Assembly: GCA_963925015.1 (NCBI GenBank)
Contig: CAWUTX010000030.1
Location: 1 to 58,096, forward strand
Reading direction: 5' to 3'
Source: an uncultured Gammaproteobacteria bacterium
Lineage (GTDB): Bacteria; Pseudomonadota; Gammaproteobacteria; SURF-13
DNA length: 58,096 nt
Positions 50,879 to 57,982 of the stretch are shown here, in pieces. The notes below the pieces were generated by a model. That model did no database searches. It was not told where the DNA came from and saw only the letters and a list, made by a program, of their open reading frames with translations. The position numbers and the translations under genes are program-made. Position 1 is the stretch's first letter. Each line of letters starts with the position of its first letter.

Positions 50879-51745
50879 ATGCGTCTGTTTTCAACAGCAT
50901 TATTTGCGGCGCTGTCGCTGTGCGGGATTGCCCTCGCTGTGGCGGAAGATCAGGCCGCTGCTCCTGCGCCCGCCCCTGCCGCTGATGTCGCCGCCCCTGC
51001 GGCCGCAGCAGCACCGGCCGCCCCCGCTCCTCACCCGATGCCGACGGGTTCGCTCAAGCTGGTAGGCAATCCTGAGAGTGGCAAAAAGATTTTTAATGAA
51101 GGCAAGGGCGAGGCTCCGCCTTGCATGTCTTGCCACGGTGAGAAAGGCCTCGGCGATGACAACATGGGCACGCCGCGCTTGGCCGGACAGGGCTTTGTCT
51201 ATCTCAGAAAGCAGTTGTATGAATTTGCCACCGACCGCCGCACCGATACCACCATGGGTGTGATGAACGGCATCGCCAAGGCACTGTCCGAGCAGGACAA
51301 GCACGACATCGCCGCTTATGAGTCCAGCATACATGGGGGCGCCCTCGCTGCGGCCTCAAATCTGGATGAGATCAAGACCGCTGGCGCCGTGCCGGTGGGT
51401 GAGAAGCACCTCGGCAAGGGCATCGTTATGCATGGCATCCCTGAGCAAGGTGTGACGGCCTGCGTGAGTTGCCACCAGTACAATGGCCGTGGCGCGTGGC
51501 CGGTCTACCCGACCATCGGCGGCCAGCGCTATGTTTACCTCGTCAACCAGCTGAAGAAGTGGCGCGACGGCAGCCGTGCCAACGATACGCTGGCGCAGAT
51601 GCGTGCGGTGGCGGGCAAGTTGACGGATGCAGACATCTACAATGTTTCGGCTTACCTCACCAGCGCGCCGCCCATTTCCGGCGGCAATTCACGCGAGCCG
51701 CATCAGCCGAAGCCTGCGACAGCCGGAGCGTCGGCGGCACACTGA
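50879..51745 (+). CDS. diheme cytochrome c4-type protein with N-terminal hydrophobic segment and an Ala/Pro-rich tether
   Basis: 288-aa ORF with two CxxCH motifs (CMSCH, CVSCH), each followed by a c4-like ...RL.GQ...Y...QL..... pattern and Met candidates. A roughly 30-aa AP-rich linker follows the signal/anchor. Confidence 0.85.
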   Translation: MRLFSTALFAALSLCGIALAVAEDQAAAPAPAPAADVAAPAAAAAPAAPAPHPMPTGSLKLVGNPESGKKIFNEGKGEAPPCMSCHGEKGLGDDNMGTPRLAGQGFVYLRKQLYEFATDRRTDTTMGVMNGIAKALSEQDKHDIAAYESSIHGGALAAASNLDEIKTAGAVPVGEKHLGKGIVMHGIPEQGVTACVSCHQYNGRGAWPVYPTIGGQRYVYLVNQLKKWRDGSRANDTLAQMRAVAGKLTDADIYNVSAYLTSAPPISGGNSREPHQPKPATAGASAAH

Positions 51746-51836: not shown

Positions 51837-52436
51837 TTGATGGAGCGCAAACAATTACTCAAACCCGGTGAAAAGCTGCTGTTTGCCGTGTTTGGCGCAT
51901 TCCTGCTGCTCGCGGTGGTCGGTCTCGTGGTTATGGAGGTGGTGCGCGCCCAGATGTCGGAGCCGATGTTTGCCGCGCGCTCCTCTTTCAATCTGGGTGT
52001 CGCAGGTCAGCGTGGCTCCAAGCTGTTTCGTGAGGCCGGTTGCACCGCCTGCCACCGCGCTTTGCGCAATGGCACCAACCATGGCATCCGACTGGACGGC
52101 GTCGGCTCGCTCCGCAGCCAGCCATGGCTGGAGGTCTTTCTCAAGCATCCCGAGGCCAATTGGGCGACCGTGACCATAGATCACGGCCAACCGCCCAAGG
52201 AGGCGGCCTACGTCGCGCAATTGCCGCCGCAGGACTTGCACGACATCGCGATGTTTCTCTCCGAGTTGAAGGCTGAGCCGGGTTCGGCGACGTCCGCCCT
52301 GCCGCCGCCCGAGATCGCGCGGTCGGGCTTCGTCAATAGCATGACCGAGATGTGGGCGCCCGAGGTGTGGAAAGAGAAATATCAGGATATCCGCCACAAA
52401 AAACCAGCGGAAGGAGAAACGAATGAGACCCAATGA
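51837..52436 (+). CDS. membrane-anchored monoheme cytochrome c, shortened CcoO/FixO-like
   Basis: 199-aa ORF with an N-terminal TM and GSKLFREAGCTACHR (CxxCH). Then GIRLDGVGSLRSQPWLEVFLKHP, which parallels the CcoO segment GPDL..VG.R.S..W...HL.NP. Confidence 0.7.
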   Translation: MMERKQLLKPGEKLLFAVFGAFLLLAVVGLVVMEVVRAQMSEPMFAARSSFNLGVAGQRGSKLFREAGCTACHRALRNGTNHGIRLDGVGSLRSQPWLEVFLKHPEANWATVTIDHGQPPKEAAYVAQLPPQDLHDIAMFLSELKAEPGSATSALPPPEIARSGFVNSMTEMWAPEVWKEKYQDIRHKKPAEGETNETQ

Positions 52437-52938
52437 GGCCTATGGCCAGGAAACCGAGTACCGGCGCTACATTCTGTGGTTTATCGCGGCCTGCGTCATT
52501 TACAGCATCATCGGTTTTTCATGGGGCGTGACGGTGGGCATGCTGCCCGATCTGCGCGAGTTCATCAACCACCAGCCGCACGCACACCTCATCATGCTCG
52601 GCCACGCCCATATTAACCTGCTCGGCTGGGTGGAGATGGCGATCTTCGCGGCGGTGTACTACATCGTTCCGCGCATTGCGCAGCGCAACATCTACAGCCT
52701 GCGCCTGGTCAGCATTCATTTCTGGATACATAACTTCGGCCTGCTCGGCATGGTGGCGTCGTTTGTGCTCGCGGGCAGCCTGGGCGGGCTCGCCAGCCAG
52801 ACCATGGACATCAACGAGGTCAATAAAATCGTGCGCCCATTCATGATCGCGGTGGGAATGTTCGGCAGCCTGGTGCTGCTCTCCAACCTCATTTGGGCCT
52901 ACAACCTTTGGCGCACCGCGCGGCGTTGGCAGCCATAG
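52423..52938 (+). CDS. 171-aa, 4-TM 'mini-CcoN' homologous to helices IX-XII of heme-copper oxidase subunit I
   Basis: Alignable by eye to the C-terminus of the 469-aa CcoN in this window. LGHAHINLLGWVEMAIFAAVYYIVPRIAQRNIYSLRLVSIHFWIHNFG aligns with VAHAHLALLGFSTFIEVAAVYYGLQVLMKRKLYSLALANFHFWMLLIG. 14-nt overlap with the upstream cytochrome gene. Confidence 0.7.
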   Translation: MRPNEAYGQETEYRRYILWFIAACVIYSIIGFSWGVTVGMLPDLREFINHQPHAHLIMLGHAHINLLGWVEMAIFAAVYYIVPRIAQRNIYSLRLVSIHFWIHNFGLLGMVASFVLAGSLGGLASQTMDINEVNKIVRPFMIAVGMFGSLVLLSNLIWAYNLWRTARRWQP

Positions 52939-52942
52939 TATT

Positions 52943-53434
52943 ATGCGAGTTACGGGCCTCCTGTGCGCCGCCTTGCTCCTTGCGGCTTGCGATACCGGCT
53001 CCAGGGTCAAGGTCGGTCAACAGGCGCCGGCTATCGCCACCAAGACCCTGGCTGATGTGGGCGGCGACTTCGGCAAGATCACTACCTACCGCCATCCCGA
53101 TGCGCGCATGTACCAGTATTCGATCGACCAGGCGCTTAAAGAAGGCAAGCCCATCGTGCTTGCCTTCGCCACGCCCGGTCACTGCACGCCGTGCGACCAG
53201 CAGTTGCAGATGCTGAAGTCGATGATCGACCGGCATCAGGATCGCGTGCTGTTTCTGCACCTGGATCAATACCAGAATCCGCAGGCCTTCAAGGCCTTCG
53301 GCGTGATGGGCGACCCGTGGACGTATATCGTCGACGCGCAGGGCACGGTGCGCTATGTGCAGGCGGGGCGCGTGTTGCGCGGCGAGTTGGAGGCGGCGCT
53401 GATGCCGGTTCTGGCGCAGACAGCGCAACCATGA
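52943..53434 (+). CDS. TlpA/ResA-like thioredoxin-fold lipoprotein
   Basis: 163-aa ORF with lipobox LLLAAC and a thioredoxin-fold CxxC (ATPGHCTPC). Confidence 0.75.
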   Translation: MRVTGLLCAALLLAACDTGSRVKVGQQAPAIATKTLADVGGDFGKITTYRHPDARMYQYSIDQALKEGKPIVLAFATPGHCTPCDQQLQMLKSMIDRHQDRVLFLHLDQYQNPQAFKAFGVMGDPWTYIVDAQGTVRYVQAGRVLRGELEAALMPVLAQTAQP

Positions 53435-53880
53435 GCGCGCGCTATGTGTTGCAGCAGGATCGCACCGGTCTGGTCTGGGATCTGATGCTCTATGTACCTA
53501 CTGTGGGTGTGCTCGGCCTGCTGGCCGTCAAGCTCTGGTATGGCGCTAATCAGGGTGCGGCCTACGTGCTGTTTTTCATGGCCTCTTTTTTTTTCATCGC
53601 CGGCGCCAACCGCATCCTCAAGACCCGTCTCATGCTGCTGCCGACAGCGCCAGTTGCGCTTGAAGTCGAGGCCGGTCAGGTGCGGCTGGGTCTGCGCAAC
53701 GGTGAGTACATCAGCATGGTAAAGGACGTGCGCTTTTACATCGACACGCAGGGCAAATCGTTCGGACTGTCCGGCAAGGATATGCTCGGGCGCCCGCAGC
53801 AACACGTTTTTCATCGCGGGCAGTTCGCCGATGAGAAGGGTTACCATGAAGCTGTGCTGGCGCTGCAGCCGTATAAATAG
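53431..53880 (+). CDS. hypothetical 2-TM membrane protein with a soluble C-terminal domain
   Basis: ATG at 53431 overlaps the preceding stop (ATGA). 149 aa. I recognise no family. Confidence 0.5.
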   Translation: MSARYVLQQDRTGLVWDLMLYVPTVGVLGLLAVKLWYGANQGAAYVLFFMASFFFIAGANRILKTRLMLLPTAPVALEVEAGQVRLGLRNGEYISMVKDVRFYIDTQGKSFGLSGKDMLGRPQQHVFHRGQFADEKGYHEAVLALQPYK

Positions 53881-53886
53881 CGGCTC

Positions 53887-54084
53887 TTATGAGCCCCTGC
53901 GGCGGCGCGTGACGATATCCCAGCCCATATAAGCGAGGCAGGCCGCGCCGATCAGGCAGACGATGAGGATCACGGTGCGCTCGGTGTCTGGGCTCACTAA
54001 TCCACCGATAAACATGTGCACTGAATACCCAAGAACCACGAGACCGCCCAAGGCAGCCAGACCGTAAAGTAAAAGTTCTTTCAT
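53887..54084 (-). CDS. hypothetical 65-aa 2-TM protein
   Basis: ORF-track ORF with two clear hydrophobic helices and a basic tail. It is the only minus-strand ORF in the cluster. Confidence 0.4.
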   Translation of the reverse strand: MKELLLYGLAALGGLVVLGYSVHMFIGGLVSPDTERTVILIVCLIGAACLAYMGWDIVTRRRRGS

Positions 54085-54197
54085 GCAGGTGTTGAAAATG
54101 TCCTGTCACCTAGGGTACATTAAGTATAGATATAAACTGCGGCTGCAGGGTGAGTAGGCAACCGCTAGACAGACTTATTTTTGATGTGGAGACTGGG

Positions 54198-54494
54198 ATG
54201 GCAAAGCAAGTCAGCATGGTAAGAAAGTCCCTCATTCTGAGCCTGGTGGTAGGCATGGTGGTGGGCATGGGTAACGGTAGCGTGTTCGGCATTTATCTCA
54301 TGGCGAACCTGGGCCGCGGAAGTTTTGCGGAGTGGGGCGGCTGGGGTGTGCAGTCTTACAGCCCATTTGGCTACTTCAACGGCTTTATGACATGGACCAT
54401 GCTGGTGTTCGGCGTCGCGTTCGTATGGATATTATTGTCCGCCCTTCATGGCCATGATAAAATGTCAAAAATTCAAGAGGGCGGCGGGCACTAA
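54198..54494 (+). CDS. hypothetical 98-aa 2-TM protein
   Basis: ATG at 54198 preceded by GGAG. Gly/Trp/aromatic-rich loop between two TM helices. Confidence 0.45.
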   Translation: MAKQVSMVRKSLILSLVVGMVVGMGNGSVFGIYLMANLGRGSFAEWGGWGVQSYSPFGYFNGFMTWTMLVFGVAFVWILLSALHGHDKMSKIQEGGGH

Positions 54495-54769: not shown

Positions 54770-56179
54770 ATGTTGATAAAATATCTGTTCGGCAAGAACG
54801 CGGACATCCCGCCAGGCACCGCTGCGGTTTTTTTCTCCTTCTCGGCCATCGTCTGGTTCATTATCGGTACCGGCCTCGGTTCATTTAATGCCGCCAAGCT
54901 CGCGTTTCCTGACTGGGTAACCGGTTTTGAGTTCTTCGCCTTCGGCAAGATGCGCCAAGTGCATGTGATGGCGGTGATCTTCGGCTGGATCTCCATGGCC
55001 TTCGCCGCCGCCATGATGTATATCACCCCCGCGCTCGGCAACACCAAGCTGTGGTCGGAGAAGCTCGGACTGTGGAGCTGCATGAACTGGAATATCGGCC
55101 TCGCGCTCGGCCTGTTCACGCTGTGGATGGGCATGACCTCGGGTCGTGAATATTCCGACTTCATCTACCCCATCGACCTGATTCTGACGTTTGCTGTGCT
55201 GATCCCGGTGGCGCTCAACGTGTGGATGACCATCGCCAAGCGTCGCACCCAGGGTATTTACACTACCAACTGGTTCTTCGCCGCCTCGATCTTCATGCTT
55301 TTGATCGTGCTGCTGGTGGGCAACCTGCCTGAATACTTCCACCTCACCGGCCTCACCGAGGCCTATCTTACCTGGTGGAACGCGCACAACATTCTGGGCC
55401 TGTGGATCACCCCGGTGGCCGCCGCCATTGCCTATTACATCATCCCCAAGATTACTGGCAACCCGCTCTACTCGCATCGTATCGGCCACCTGCACTTCTG
55501 GTCGATCGTGATTTTCTACTCCACGCCCGCCGCGCATCACCTGATGTCCGCGCCGCTGCCGGAGTGGCTGAAGTCCTTCGCTTCGGTGGAGGGCGTGCTA
55601 ATTCTGGTGCCGGCGATTGCCTTCGTCTCCAACATCCTGCTCACCTTGCAGGGCAAGTGGAACATGTTCGTGGAGAACATCGAAATTCGCTTCACCGTGA
55701 CCGGCGTGCTGCTCGCCATCCCGCTCAATATGCAGGGTGGCTTCCAGCAGACCCGATCCATCAATTGGTACATACACGGTACCGGCTGGATCGTGGCGCA
55801 TGCTCACTTGGCCTTGCTCGGCTTCTCAACCTTCATTGAAGTCGCCGCCGTGTACTATGGCCTGCAAGTGCTGATGAAGCGCAAACTTTACTCGCTCGCG
55901 CTCGCCAACTTCCATTTCTGGATGCTGCTCATCGGCTTCTCAATCTACTGGATTTCGATGACCATCGCCGGCCTGATTCAGGGCGCGGGCAAGATTTATG
56001 AAGTGCCGTACATCGACATCGTGGCCGCGGAGCATCCGTACATGATCGCGCGCTGGTTCGGTGGCACCCTGGTGTTCCTCGGCAACTGCGTGTGGCTGTA
56101 CAACATGTACATGACGGCGCGTGAGGGCACCCCGGTGCCCGCAGGCCGCATGGTGCATGAGCTGGCCTACCAGCGTTAA
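54770..56179 (+). CDS. ccoN: cbb3-type (C-family) heme-copper oxidase subunit I
   Basis: 469-aa, 12-TM ORF. Helix II His (FGKMRQVHV), CuB His (WWNAHNILG; AAHHL), the helix-VII Tyr six residues before HH (IFYSTPAAHH) as in the cross-linked Tyr of cbb3, and helix X HAH (VAHAHLALLGF). Confidence 0.9.
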   Translation: MLIKYLFGKNADIPPGTAAVFFSFSAIVWFIIGTGLGSFNAAKLAFPDWVTGFEFFAFGKMRQVHVMAVIFGWISMAFAAAMMYITPALGNTKLWSEKLGLWSCMNWNIGLALGLFTLWMGMTSGREYSDFIYPIDLILTFAVLIPVALNVWMTIAKRRTQGIYTTNWFFAASIFMLLIVLLVGNLPEYFHLTGLTEAYLTWWNAHNILGLWITPVAAAIAYYIIPKITGNPLYSHRIGHLHFWSIVIFYSTPAAHHLMSAPLPEWLKSFASVEGVLILVPAIAFVSNILLTLQGKWNMFVENIEIRFTVTGVLLAIPLNMQGGFQQTRSINWYIHGTGWIVAHAHLALLGFSTFIEVAAVYYGLQVLMKRKLYSLALANFHFWMLLIGFSIYWISMTIAGLIQGAGKIYEVPYIDIVAAEHPYMIARWFGGTLVFLGNCVWLYNMYMTAREGTPVPAGRMVHELAYQR

Positions 56180-56206
56180 TTCTGGAAAAATTTAAAGGAG
56201 CTTAAC

Positions 56207-57157
56207 GTGGCTTTTAGAGAATATCGAATCGGCGCCGTGATGTTCGGCGCAGCACTCAGCTTGTCCATGTTCATCACGCTGGTGGTGCCGAGCATCAACA
56301 TCTTCTCGGTAGGGTCTACGGCGCTTGCCCTGGAGAAGCAGTTGACCTACGGCTTCAACAGCGGCTGGAACACGGATGATATGTTCTTGGCTGGCAAAAA
56401 CAAACCGCTTAAGGTTCTGCTAAAGCAGGACCCACAGACGGACGCCGTGATGGAGCCGGTGCATGCCTACGTGTTCCCTGCCAATGCACGCTTTCCGAGC
56501 GGCATTCTGCACCCCAAGGTGTTGGGCGCCGGGTCTGACGTGCTGAGTGTAGAGCAGGGCAGGATCAGCGAGGCCAGCGAGGCGCGGGGCGCCGTGTTTG
56601 TGGTGCGCAGCGGCGAGCAGAACGGCAAATCCTATCCCTATATCGAAAACGCCAGCGCTACGCGCGGCTGGAGCCCGGATGCCGTACTAAAGGCCGCCGG
56701 TGATGCCAACACCAGCCATGCCGGTGCGGGCAAGACTATCTTTGTGCGTGAGGGCTGCTGGTGGTGCCACACCCTGCTGCCCGAGCAGACGCAGGACTTC
56801 CAGTATTTCGGCGCGCCGCCCTACCTGGGCGACTTCAACGGCGAATCCCCGACCGCGTTCGGCTCTGACCGCAAGGCCCCTGACCTGCTGCATGTGGGTT
56901 CGCGCAACTCATCGAAAGAGTGGCTGATGATGCACTTCTTCAATCCGCGTCTGGTGCAGCCGCACTCGCTCATGCCGCGCTTTGACTACCTGTGGGGCAA
57001 GACCGACGCCGCTGGCAACACGATCGATTACGCCGCCTGGCGCAAGGAATTCGTGGAGTACCGCAACGGCGAGCGCGTCACGCCGCCTGAGGTGCCGAAC
57101 TACCGTGCCGATAGCAAGATTCGCTATCTCATAGACTTTGTCTTGAACCTGAAGTAA
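56207..57157 (+). CDS. ccoO: CcoO-like monoheme subunit with a large N-proximal insertion
   Basis: 316-aa ORF with GTG start after AGGAG. TM anchor, then CxxCH only at residues 184-188 (REGCWWCHT). Then the CcoO signature GSDRKAPDLLHVGSRNSSKEWLMMHFFNPRLVQPHSLMPRF. Confidence 0.85.
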   Translation: MAFREYRIGAVMFGAALSLSMFITLVVPSINIFSVGSTALALEKQLTYGFNSGWNTDDMFLAGKNKPLKVLLKQDPQTDAVMEPVHAYVFPANARFPSGILHPKVLGAGSDVLSVEQGRISEASEARGAVFVVRSGEQNGKSYPYIENASATRGWSPDAVLKAAGDANTSHAGAGKTIFVREGCWWCHTLLPEQTQDFQYFGAPPYLGDFNGESPTAFGSDRKAPDLLHVGSRNSSKEWLMMHFFNPRLVQPHSLMPRFDYLWGKTDAAGNTIDYAAWRKEFVEYRNGERVTPPEVPNYRADSKIRYLIDFVLNLK

Positions 57158-57170
57158 TAGGAGGAGTGTC

Positions 57171-57860
57171 ATGACCTGGAGATTTGATAATCCGCTGCGC
57201 ACATTGACCAGTGATGAGCAAAACAAGACCGCCATGGAAGTATGGGAGGCGGAGAGCATGGGCGGGATTATGGAAAACAATAACCGTCTGCCGCAGCCGG
57301 TGGTTTATTTGCTGGTGCTGACCATCATATCTGCCTATCTCATTACCTTCCCGTTGTGGGGTCAGCGTCCTACCGCTGCGATCTACGCAGAGTTTGTGGC
57401 TGAGATGGACAGCGCCCAGGTTGAGGCGCTGCCGAATGACGCCGCGCGCATGAACTACCTGCTGAAGAAGGCGCAGACAGACGGCTCAAAATACGTCACT
57501 CCGCATATCAATCACCCCATCAGCATGGATGATCTGCGCGTGCTGCGTCCCCAGATCGAGGCACTGAAGGCCCAGGGCGTGGTGCTGGATGACTACACGG
57601 TGGTAGGCAACAAGGTGGTGCTGGCCAATTTCGAAGGCAATATGCGCGCAGACGGTACCCAGGAGCGCCAGCAACCGTGGTGGGACAAGGGCTATACCAT
57701 CGACATCTTCTACGTGATCTACTTCTGTATCGCGGTATTGATTGTGGTGAAGCGCCTGCCCCCCAATACCGTACAACCGCGCCACGGCAATGAACTCATG
57801 CTGAGTGACGCCGAGATTGCTGAGCTGAGCGTGCATGGACAAAAGAGGAGAGTAGCATGA
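57171..57860 (+). CDS. heme-less membrane protein with a CcoP/FixP N-terminal-like anchor
   Basis: 229-aa ORF after AGGAGG. GIMENNNRLPQPVVYLLVLTIISAYLITFPLWG parallels the FixP_N segment GIEEYDNPLPRWW...YPG. There is no CxxCH anywhere. A second TM lies near the C-terminus. Confidence 0.6.
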   Translation: MTWRFDNPLRTLTSDEQNKTAMEVWEAESMGGIMENNNRLPQPVVYLLVLTIISAYLITFPLWGQRPTAAIYAEFVAEMDSAQVEALPNDAARMNYLLKKAQTDGSKYVTPHINHPISMDDLRVLRPQIEALKAQGVVLDDYTVVGNKVVLANFEGNMRADGTQERQQPWWDKGYTIDIFYVIYFCIAVLIVVKRLPPNTVQPRHGNELMLSDAEIAELSVHGQKRRVA

Positions 57861-57982
57861 TAGATCTCGACAACCCGCCGCTGGTGCTGGCCGCAGTATC
57901 GTTAATAGCTTTGCTGGTGCCGGTGCTGTACAGCTTTATCGTTGATCGTTACGCGCCCAACCTGTACAAAAAGAAAAAATAA
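57857..57982 (+). CDS. 41-aa single-TM peptide in the CcoQ-like position
   Basis: Below the ORF-track cutoff, with ATGA overlap with the preceding stop. Translation is MIDLDNPPLVLAAVSLIALLVPVLYSFIVDRYAPNLYKKKK*. Confidence 0.4.
   Translation: MIDLDNPPLVLAAVSLIALLVPVLYSFIVDRYAPNLYKKKK

Follow-up and report, generated by a model that had tools for sequence, protein, structure and literature searches.

Genome papers on 'Ferrovum' JA12, Candidatus (Ca.) Tenderia, Sideroxydans ES-1 and Zetaproteobacteria have already reported a ccoNO cluster for a cbb3-type oxidase that is not accompanied by ccoQP. In 'Ferrovum' JA12 only subunits I and II were recognized, and co-localized cytochromes were proposed as possible stand-ins for subunit III (PMC4725956). 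A preprint on the Tenderiales describes a conserved 26-gene region of the same content and order (its Fig. 2B) as 'a sort of alternative complex IV' that had earlier been seen in freshwater iron oxidisers (10.1101/2022.05.06.490989). Here we analyse such a cluster at positions 54770–57982 of contig CAWUTX010000030.1 (58,096 nucleotides, hereafter the window), from an uncultured gammaproteobacterium of the SURF-13 lineage (assembly GCA_963925015.1). The window is the whole of contig C30 in a 1.45 Mb, 117-contig, 92%-complete metagenome-assembled genome (MAG). We conclude that the operon probably encodes a working cbb3-type O2 reductase composed of CcoN, a long CcoO (CcoO′) and two further membrane proteins, X and S, and that it is a CcoP-less and CcoQ-less variant belonging to lithotrophs that live on high-potential donors (Fe(II), nitrite or cathodes).

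Published expression sets, which are not matched to the present clade by locus tag, show that Ca. Tenderia expresses its canonical ccoNOPQ weakly while the non-canonical 'complex IV-2' is among its most highly expressed genes (PMC5371394), and that Sideroxydans ES-1 expresses both of its ccoNO types at high levels (PMC8788666). Surveys of Zetaproteobacteria, Sideroxydans ES-1 and Gallionellaceae sort cbb3 oxidases into the 'proximal' and 'distal' subtrees of Ducluzeau et al. 2008 (PMC7029218, PMC8788666, PMC10734462); these papers give no locus tags by which this clade could be assigned to either subtree. We found no purified or solved enzyme of this clade in the literature searched.

Organization of the operon

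All four open reading frames were confirmed at the positions proposed by an earlier reading made from the DNA letters alone (the sequence-only reading). They are as follows.

54770–56179, + strand: CcoN, 469 amino acids; Pfam COX1 match of 260 bits
56207–57157, + strand: CcoO′, 316 amino acids; GTG start; FixO hidden Markov model match at residues 174–271
57171–57860, + strand: X, 229 amino acids; putative haem-less homologue of the CcoP anchor; FixP_N match of 23.8 bits
57857–57982, + strand: S, 41 amino acids; single-transmembrane (TM) peptide without a Pfam match

The ccoO′ gene starts 27 nt past the end of ccoN at an AAGGAG-N7-GTG junction, and X is preceded by AGGAGG-N6-ATG. The junction of S reads GAGGAG-N6-ATGA, in which the stop codon of X overlaps the start codon of S, coupling the translation of S to that of X. 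No convincing terminator was found within the four-gene unit. Read from these junctions, the four genes appear to form a real operon and one tightly coupled unit with strong Shine–Dalgarno sequences, in agreement with the sequence-only reading.

That reading also held that the canonical ccoNOQP layout is not present, and we likewise found neither ccoQ nor ccoP. A standard dihaem ccoP immediately downstream, which it had named as evidence that would count against it, was not found on contig C49, where the cluster seems to continue. When the ccoP model TIGR00782 was run against the whole genome, its best score was 28 bits, against a cut-off of 180, at 51077–51340 in the gene for a dihaem c4-type cytochrome. 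In tblastn searches of the genome, six canonical CcoP sequences gave no E value below 0.002 and six CcoQ sequences gave no match, and FixH (ccoH) was not found in the whole genome.

CcoN keeps the ligands and differs elsewhere

Residues of CcoN such as S240, Y317 and E323 are numbered according to the Pseudomonas stutzeri protein (3MK7_A). In the alignment to this chain, window residues H65, H206, Y250, H256, H257, H344 and H346 correspond to H60, H207, Y251, H257, H258, H345 and H347. The six histidine ligands (two of haem b, one of haem b3 and three of CuB) and the cross-link tyrosine are invariant in all 81 clade members, and Glu122 of the Ca site is also kept in the window protein. Because all ligands and the helix-VII tyrosine are present, an O2-reducing C-family enzyme is expected, as the sequence-only reading had concluded.

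The same reading called this CcoN canonical, a description that holds for the ligand histidines and the helix-VII tyrosine but not for the protein as a whole. As a whole the window CcoN falls outside the canonical type. Against TIGR00780, the ccoN equivalog model with a cut-off of 583 bits, it reaches 241 bits, and it is about 30% identical to the CcoN of ccoNOQP operons in the same class. Across 300 genomes of the class, TIGR00780 scores fall into two main groups, canonical at 600–800 bits and variant at around 240 bits, with few intermediate values. A maximum-likelihood tree was built from 27 variant CcoN sequences and 34 canonical ones, the latter all of the ccoNOQP type and from the same class. 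A 100/100 branch of about 10 substitutions per site parts the two groups, and the variant clade itself is very shallow.

Individual residues were compared by aligning 81 variant with 34 canonical CcoN sequences; the alignment contains 83 fixed differences against 73 shared invariant columns. The fixed differences include S240 to Gly, Y317 to Ala and E323 to Gln (81/81 variant versus 34/34 canonical), the corresponding window residues being G239, A316 and Q322. T215, Y223, H243, N289 and T293 are invariant in both groups. E323 is the sole invariant membrane-embedded glutamate in the canonical sequences. From the P. stutzeri structure and from Vibrio cholerae and Rhodobacter sphaeroides mutants, we take E323 to be the glutamate by the haem b3 histidine and S240 and Y317 to line the proton channel; the polar residues that we assign to the single K-analogue channel (S240, Y317 and the five positions shared by both groups) are likewise presumed from P. 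stutzeri and V. cholerae work. A conserved glutamate hydrogen-bonded to the haem b3 histidine, for which no residue numbers are given, has been used to explain the low potential of that haem (PMC8398457). Searching the literature by residue number for E323 and Y317 returned nothing usable.

CcoO′ is a long monohaem subunit

CcoO′ consists of a TM helix (approximately residues 3–34), a periplasmic insert of about 140 residues, a haem domain and a C-terminal extension. Its 316 amino acids compare with 202–209 in canonical CcoO, bearing out an earlier estimate of about 1.5 times the usual length. The haem c site is a single CWWCH at 184–188 (C184-W-W-C187-H188) together with an invariant Met256, and the FixO match (64 bits, above the 29.6 cut-off) covers residues 174–271 only. 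The full length, insert included, is kept in 79 loci, and the C-terminal extension is conserved.

In an AlphaFold 2 model the insert is beta-rich, with four strands and short helices, and has predicted local distance difference test (pLDDT) values of approximately 78–96 at residues 60–170 and of 66 for the 51–60 block. The haem domain is poorly modelled (pLDDT 25–47), as expected without haem. A Foldseek search with the insert found no PDB fold match at E≤0.001.

X resembles the CcoP anchor and is coupled to a small peptide

X has two TM helices flanking a periplasmic helical domain of about 110 residues, and contains no CxxCH. It begins with an invariant cytoplasmic motif (W25, E26 ... G31, G32, x, x, E35, x, N37, N38, x, x, P41), which is followed by the first TM helix, PLWGQRP, the periplasmic domain, QPWWDxGY, the second TM helix and KRLP. 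The periplasmic domain holds an invariant His115-Pro116 and an ANFEG motif. Five X orthologues with an internal stop (L040, L052, L076, L077 and L080), probably an extraction artefact from the overlapping S frame, were excluded.

The FixP_N model (PF14715) matches residues 32–64 of the window X with 23.8 bits, the gathering score being 24.9, and matches 37 of 53 X orthologues at E≤0.01. Aligned by hhalign with a profile of six canonical CcoP sequences, a 53-sequence X profile gave a probability of 89% and E 2.2e-6, with X 23–95 corresponding to CcoP 46–133. This span covers the HVWD..LQE.NNPLPRWW motif and the next TM helix, and pairs the invariant Glu, Asn-Asn and Pro of X with their CcoP counterparts. 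X thus appears to be related to the CcoP membrane anchor through the cytoplasm-proximal motif and the TM helix, in keeping with the description of the third gene as a FixP-like anchor without a haem motif. A search of PDB chains with the single X sequence gave no CcoP match. The AlphaFold 2 model of X has a mean pLDDT of 72 and, like the CcoO′ insert, no PDB fold match at E≤0.001 in Foldseek; no known fold can therefore be assigned to either.

The X family is small. An exhaustive profile search of 1.84 billion protein representatives yielded only 40 representative clusters, three of them full length, and 69 of the 401 genomes sampled from the phylum carry X. The same search returned short two-helix relatives of 93–183 amino acids with the frame YDGIxEG..P – TM – PLWG.R ... 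PWWD.GY – TM. One X-like two-helix protein, of 139 amino acids and with almost no periplasmic loop, is encoded on C49 directly after a CcoG-like gene (L084:3366–3785, − strand), and has the frame E.I.E...VP.W – TM – FPFWGDRP ... WFDWGF – TM. In many Zetaproteobacteria-type genomes such short paralogues lie about 8 kb from X.

S follows X directly in 65 loci and carries the motif MI(D/E)xD...P..YSF(F/I)(V/I)D, with M1, D5, P22, Y25 and D30 invariant in 23 aligned sequences. On this conservation it is a real gene, as the earlier observation of a 41-residue peptide with an ATGA overlap had suggested. We also considered that S might be a displaced CcoQ, and rejected this (hhalign probability of 1.8% against a CcoQ profile).

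The cluster is conserved across lithotrophs

A protein search found hundreds (at least 120) of database clusters 77–95% identical to the window CcoN. Those that are named belong to Gammaproteobacteria or Betaproteobacteria MAGs, Mariprofundus and Zetaproteobacteria. A scan of species-representative genomes returned 210 loci, 80 of which were kept for comparison; they derive from Ca. Nitrotoga, Gallionellaceae/Sideroxydans, Ferrovaceae, Zetaproteobacteria, Ca. Tenderia, Chromatiaceae and Ectothiorhodospiraceae. The closest loci (90–95%) come from Gammaproteobacteria MAGs, for which isolate labels such as GFS, SURF and SMAG give the only hints of habitat.

By tblastn, the order 114-residue membrane protein, CcoN, 316-residue CcoO, X, S is common to essentially all kept loci, and an upstream module of monohaem cytochrome c, truncated CcoN and thioredoxin-like protein to most. 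Typical spacers are 22–36 nt between N and O′, 10–20 nt between O′ and X, and −4 to +37 nt between X and S (65–80 loci). Because the N–O′–X–S arrangement recurs with similar spacers in 65–80 independent loci, it is not due to chance. This is the operon comparison with relatives that the sequence-only reading had proposed.

The same comparison bears on the claim of a structurally distinct C-family variant. The variant is distinct, but the novelty that the claim implied does not stand: CcoN lies in a shallow clade (77–95% identity) with the same accessory genes, which is essentially the placement that had been named as speaking against the claim, and the cluster has already been published. Because the cluster is widespread and already reported from genomes, the window adds one more carrier and not a new kind.

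Flanking genes in the window and on contig C49

Upstream of the operon, the window contains the following features.

50879–51745, + strand: dihaem c4-type cytochrome with a hydrophobic N-terminus and an Ala/Pro linker
51837–53434, + strand: companion module of an anchored monohaem cytochrome c, a 171-residue 'mini-CcoN' and a thioredoxin-like protein, assigned by Pfam
54150–54494, + strand: 114-residue membrane protein (p114), upstream of ccoN in nearly all loci at 40–89% identity
54555–54713, + strand: 52-residue single-TM peptide (pep52), directly upstream of ccoN and in the same position in 72 loci (tblastn)

The dihaem c4 protein is matched by Pfam Cytochrom_C in two stretches and by Cytochrome_CBB3 with 40.5 bits. 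It is conserved upstream in 43 loci and is a candidate tethered electron donor. The companion module is listed as monohaem cytochrome, truncated CcoN and thioredoxin in the Tenderia gene map (Fig. 2B of 10.1101/2022.05.06.490989). Its cytochrome c gene overlaps that of the mini-CcoN, which comprises only the last four or so helices of CcoN, including the H-x-H motif. A second mini-CcoN (169 amino acids) is encoded on C49 (L084:1966–2475, + strand), and both copies are conserved parts of the supercluster. A 149-residue two-helix protein (53431–53880, + strand), coupled to the thioredoxin-like gene, and a 65-residue two-helix open reading frame (53887–54084, − strand) have no family match and are conserved between the two oxidase-related modules in approximately 61–63 loci.

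For p114, scans of Pfam and of NCBIfam-type models gave no family match. The pep52 peptide ends in a Cys-rich tail (CxxC...CC), and only residues 1–27, which form the helix, are conserved beyond the closest relatives; the cysteine tail is therefore not a family feature. It is possible that pep52 is a further small subunit or an assembly factor.

In a related genome (locus L009), S is followed by a small membrane protein, an 85-residue FixS/CcoS-like protein and a TM-anchored monohaem cytochrome c, and then by an FGE-sulfatase-like protein and membrane proteins. The genome analysed here encodes the same proteins in the same order at the end of its contig C49, and on this synteny the oxidase cluster appears to continue there. 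Pfam matches on C49 include FixS (21.5 bits, sub-threshold), a Cytochrome_CBB3-type monohaem domain (27.2 bits), FGE-sulfatase, a CcoG-like polyferredoxin and the second truncated CcoN. The FGE-sulfatase-domain protein (188 bits; L084:8648–9712, − strand) and a 912-residue polytopic membrane protein with a spermidine-synthase domain (L084:5210–7948, − strand) separate the anchored cytochrome c from the CcoG-like gene, and occupy the same positions in L009. The CcoS-like, cytochrome c, FGE-like and CcoG-like genes are common to L009 and to the Tenderia gene map. The suggestion that ccoGHIS might lie past the right edge of the window was partly correct: CcoS-like and CcoG-like genes are on C49, ccoH was not found, and ccoI was not searched for.

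The COX1 model matches only the window ccoN and the two truncated CcoN genes in this genome, and cytochrome bd subunit I was not found there. A 100%-complete genome of the same genus likewise has three matches to the ccoN model, with the best E at the variant level. In the small genome analysed here (1.45 Mb, approximately 60% G+C) no cytochrome bd, A-family or B-family oxidase or canonical cbb3 was found.

How the oxidase may work

We propose that X would sit on CcoN at the site of the CcoP anchor. Its Glu35, which aligns with an invariant glutamate of CcoP, would then be near the proton entrance, the CcoP residue being, as we understand the P. stutzeri structure, at the mouth of the single proton channel. 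Electrons may pass directly into haem c of CcoO′ from membrane-tethered c-type cytochromes of the supercluster, with the dihaem c4 protein (50879–51745) and the anchored monohaem cytochrome c three genes downstream on C49 as putative donors. The beta-rich insert of CcoO′ and the periplasmic domain of X could together form a docking surface that replaces the CcoP haem domains. The dihaem subunit of cbb3 enzymes has been reported to be dispensable for electron transfer (PMC8398457). In CcoN, E323Q would remove the glutamate that hydrogen-bonds the haem b3 histidine, and because this glutamate is held responsible for the low potential, a higher haem b3 potential is predicted, which would suit high-potential donors. 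S240G and Y317A may remodel the proton path.

A bolder form of this proposal is that the clade constitutes a structurally and energetically distinct C-family subtype, a four-subunit CcoN–CcoO′–X–S enzyme in which a haem-less anchor relative and a new periplasmic CcoO domain replace the dihaem subunit and E323Q, Y317A and S240G retune the haem b3 potential and the proton path to high-potential electrons from Fe(II), nitrite or cathodes. We put this forward tentatively, as a possibility about which we are somewhat more doubtful than confident. The literature searched says nothing of four features: that X is related to the CcoP anchor, that CcoO contains a folded insert, that the peptides are conserved and that three substitutions are clade-wide.

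Several points weigh against a four-subunit O2 reductase of this kind. X and S could be assembly factors that do not co-purify with CcoN–CcoO′. The FixP_N score of X is under the curated cut-off, and a search of PDB chains with the X profile did not retrieve CcoP; the link between X and CcoP needed profile–profile comparison. The roles of E323, S240, Y317 and the CcoP glutamate are partly presumed from the P. stutzeri structure and from mutants. With two of the K-channel-analogue residues absent, the enzyme may not pump protons, and the identity of the donors and their docking are conjectural.

The main competing explanation is that the oxidase has two subunits, CcoN and CcoO′, and that X, S and the peptides encoded upstream help to assemble or mature it, as CcoS and CcoH do, without being stoichiometric subunits. 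Many genes of the supercluster are of the maturation type (CcoS-like, CcoG-like, thioredoxin-like and FGE-like), X lacks any cofactor motif, and ccoNO is given as the conserved core of cbb3 enzymes in a paper that cites Ducluzeau 2008. However, X keeps the motif by which CcoP contacts CcoN and occupies the ccoP gene position, at 10–20 nt spacing and coupled to S, in more than 65 loci, whereas canonical maturation genes are mostly in a separate operon; we consider this explanation unlikely. Slightly less likely again is that CcoP has been split, with the dihaem c4 protein, encoded 3 kb upstream, permanently bound and rebuilding a CcoP-like subunit together with X, to give a functionally normal three-cytochrome cbb3. 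The c4 protein does contain a Cytochrome_CBB3 domain, is the genome's best match to the ccoP model and is conserved upstream in those 43 loci, and a cyc1-type cytochrome is reported in association with a cbb3 cluster in ES-1 (PMC8788666). Yet that best match is far below the ccoP cut-off, the protein has a hydrophobic N-terminus of its own and a separate gene, which precedes another module (cytochrome c, mini-CcoN and thioredoxin), and the 6-kb upstream flanks of many loci, those of the Ferrovaceae type among them, did not yield it.

The substitutions S240G, Y317A and E323Q, fixed in the clade, could also be taken to mean that the complex is not primarily an O2 reductase but a nitric oxide (NO) reductase or a non-pumping scavenging oxidase, and cbb3 enzymes with NO-reductase side activity are known (PMC8780969). 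This is very improbable given that the CuB histidine triad and the cross-link tyrosine are intact, with no FeB site of the NO reductase type, that neither this genome nor the 100%-complete one from the same genus offers another candidate O2 reductase, and that carriers of the complex include obligate microaerophilic iron oxidisers.

The CcoN–CcoO′–X–S oxidase is the sole full haem–copper oxidase found in the genome and non-canonical cbb3 genes have been reported to be highly expressed, which together make it a probable terminal oxidase. The variant thus probably carries out the last step of electron transport in neutrophilic iron oxidisers, in nitrite oxidisers of the Nitrotoga type and in bacteria that oxidise cathodes. 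It is of mechanistic interest in that it appears to manage without CcoP yet keeps a CcoP-like anchor. The natural glutamine in place of the conserved glutamate by the haem b3 histidine offers a ready test of how that glutamate sets the haem potential, and perhaps the O2 affinity. For annotation, X, S and the long CcoO could be given names in place of 'hypothetical protein'.

Comparison with known cbb3 oxidases

Relative to canonical CcoNOQP enzymes (P. stutzeri, 3MK7 and 5DJQ; Rhodobacter capsulatus, 6XKW), the variant matches the CcoN fold over residues 22–456 (228 bits) and retains the haem and CuB ligands, the helix-VII tyrosine, Glu122, the CcoO monohaem domain and, in X, apparently the CcoP anchor motif. 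It differs in the low identity of its CcoN and the 83 fixed differences that include S240G, Y317A and E323Q, in the insert of approximately 140 residues and the C-terminal extension of its CcoO, and in having no CcoP haem domains, CcoQ or CcoH.

The ccoNO-only cluster of 'Ferrovum' JA12 and the conserved cbb3-1/cbb3-2 region of Ca. Tenderia electrophaga are much closer. The papers describing them leave the genes past ccoO unnamed, and make no mention of a relation between X and the CcoP anchor, of the insert in CcoO or of the fixed substitutions next to the active site. They belong to the same clade as the window, with Ferrovaceae and Tenderia CcoN 80–81% identical to that of the window, and they share its gene order, which runs from dihaem and monohaem cytochromes through truncated CcoN, thioredoxin, CcoN and CcoO to the unnamed genes and, further downstream, to a monohaem cytochrome, CcoG and a second truncated CcoN. 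Nothing essential in them differs from the cluster in the window.

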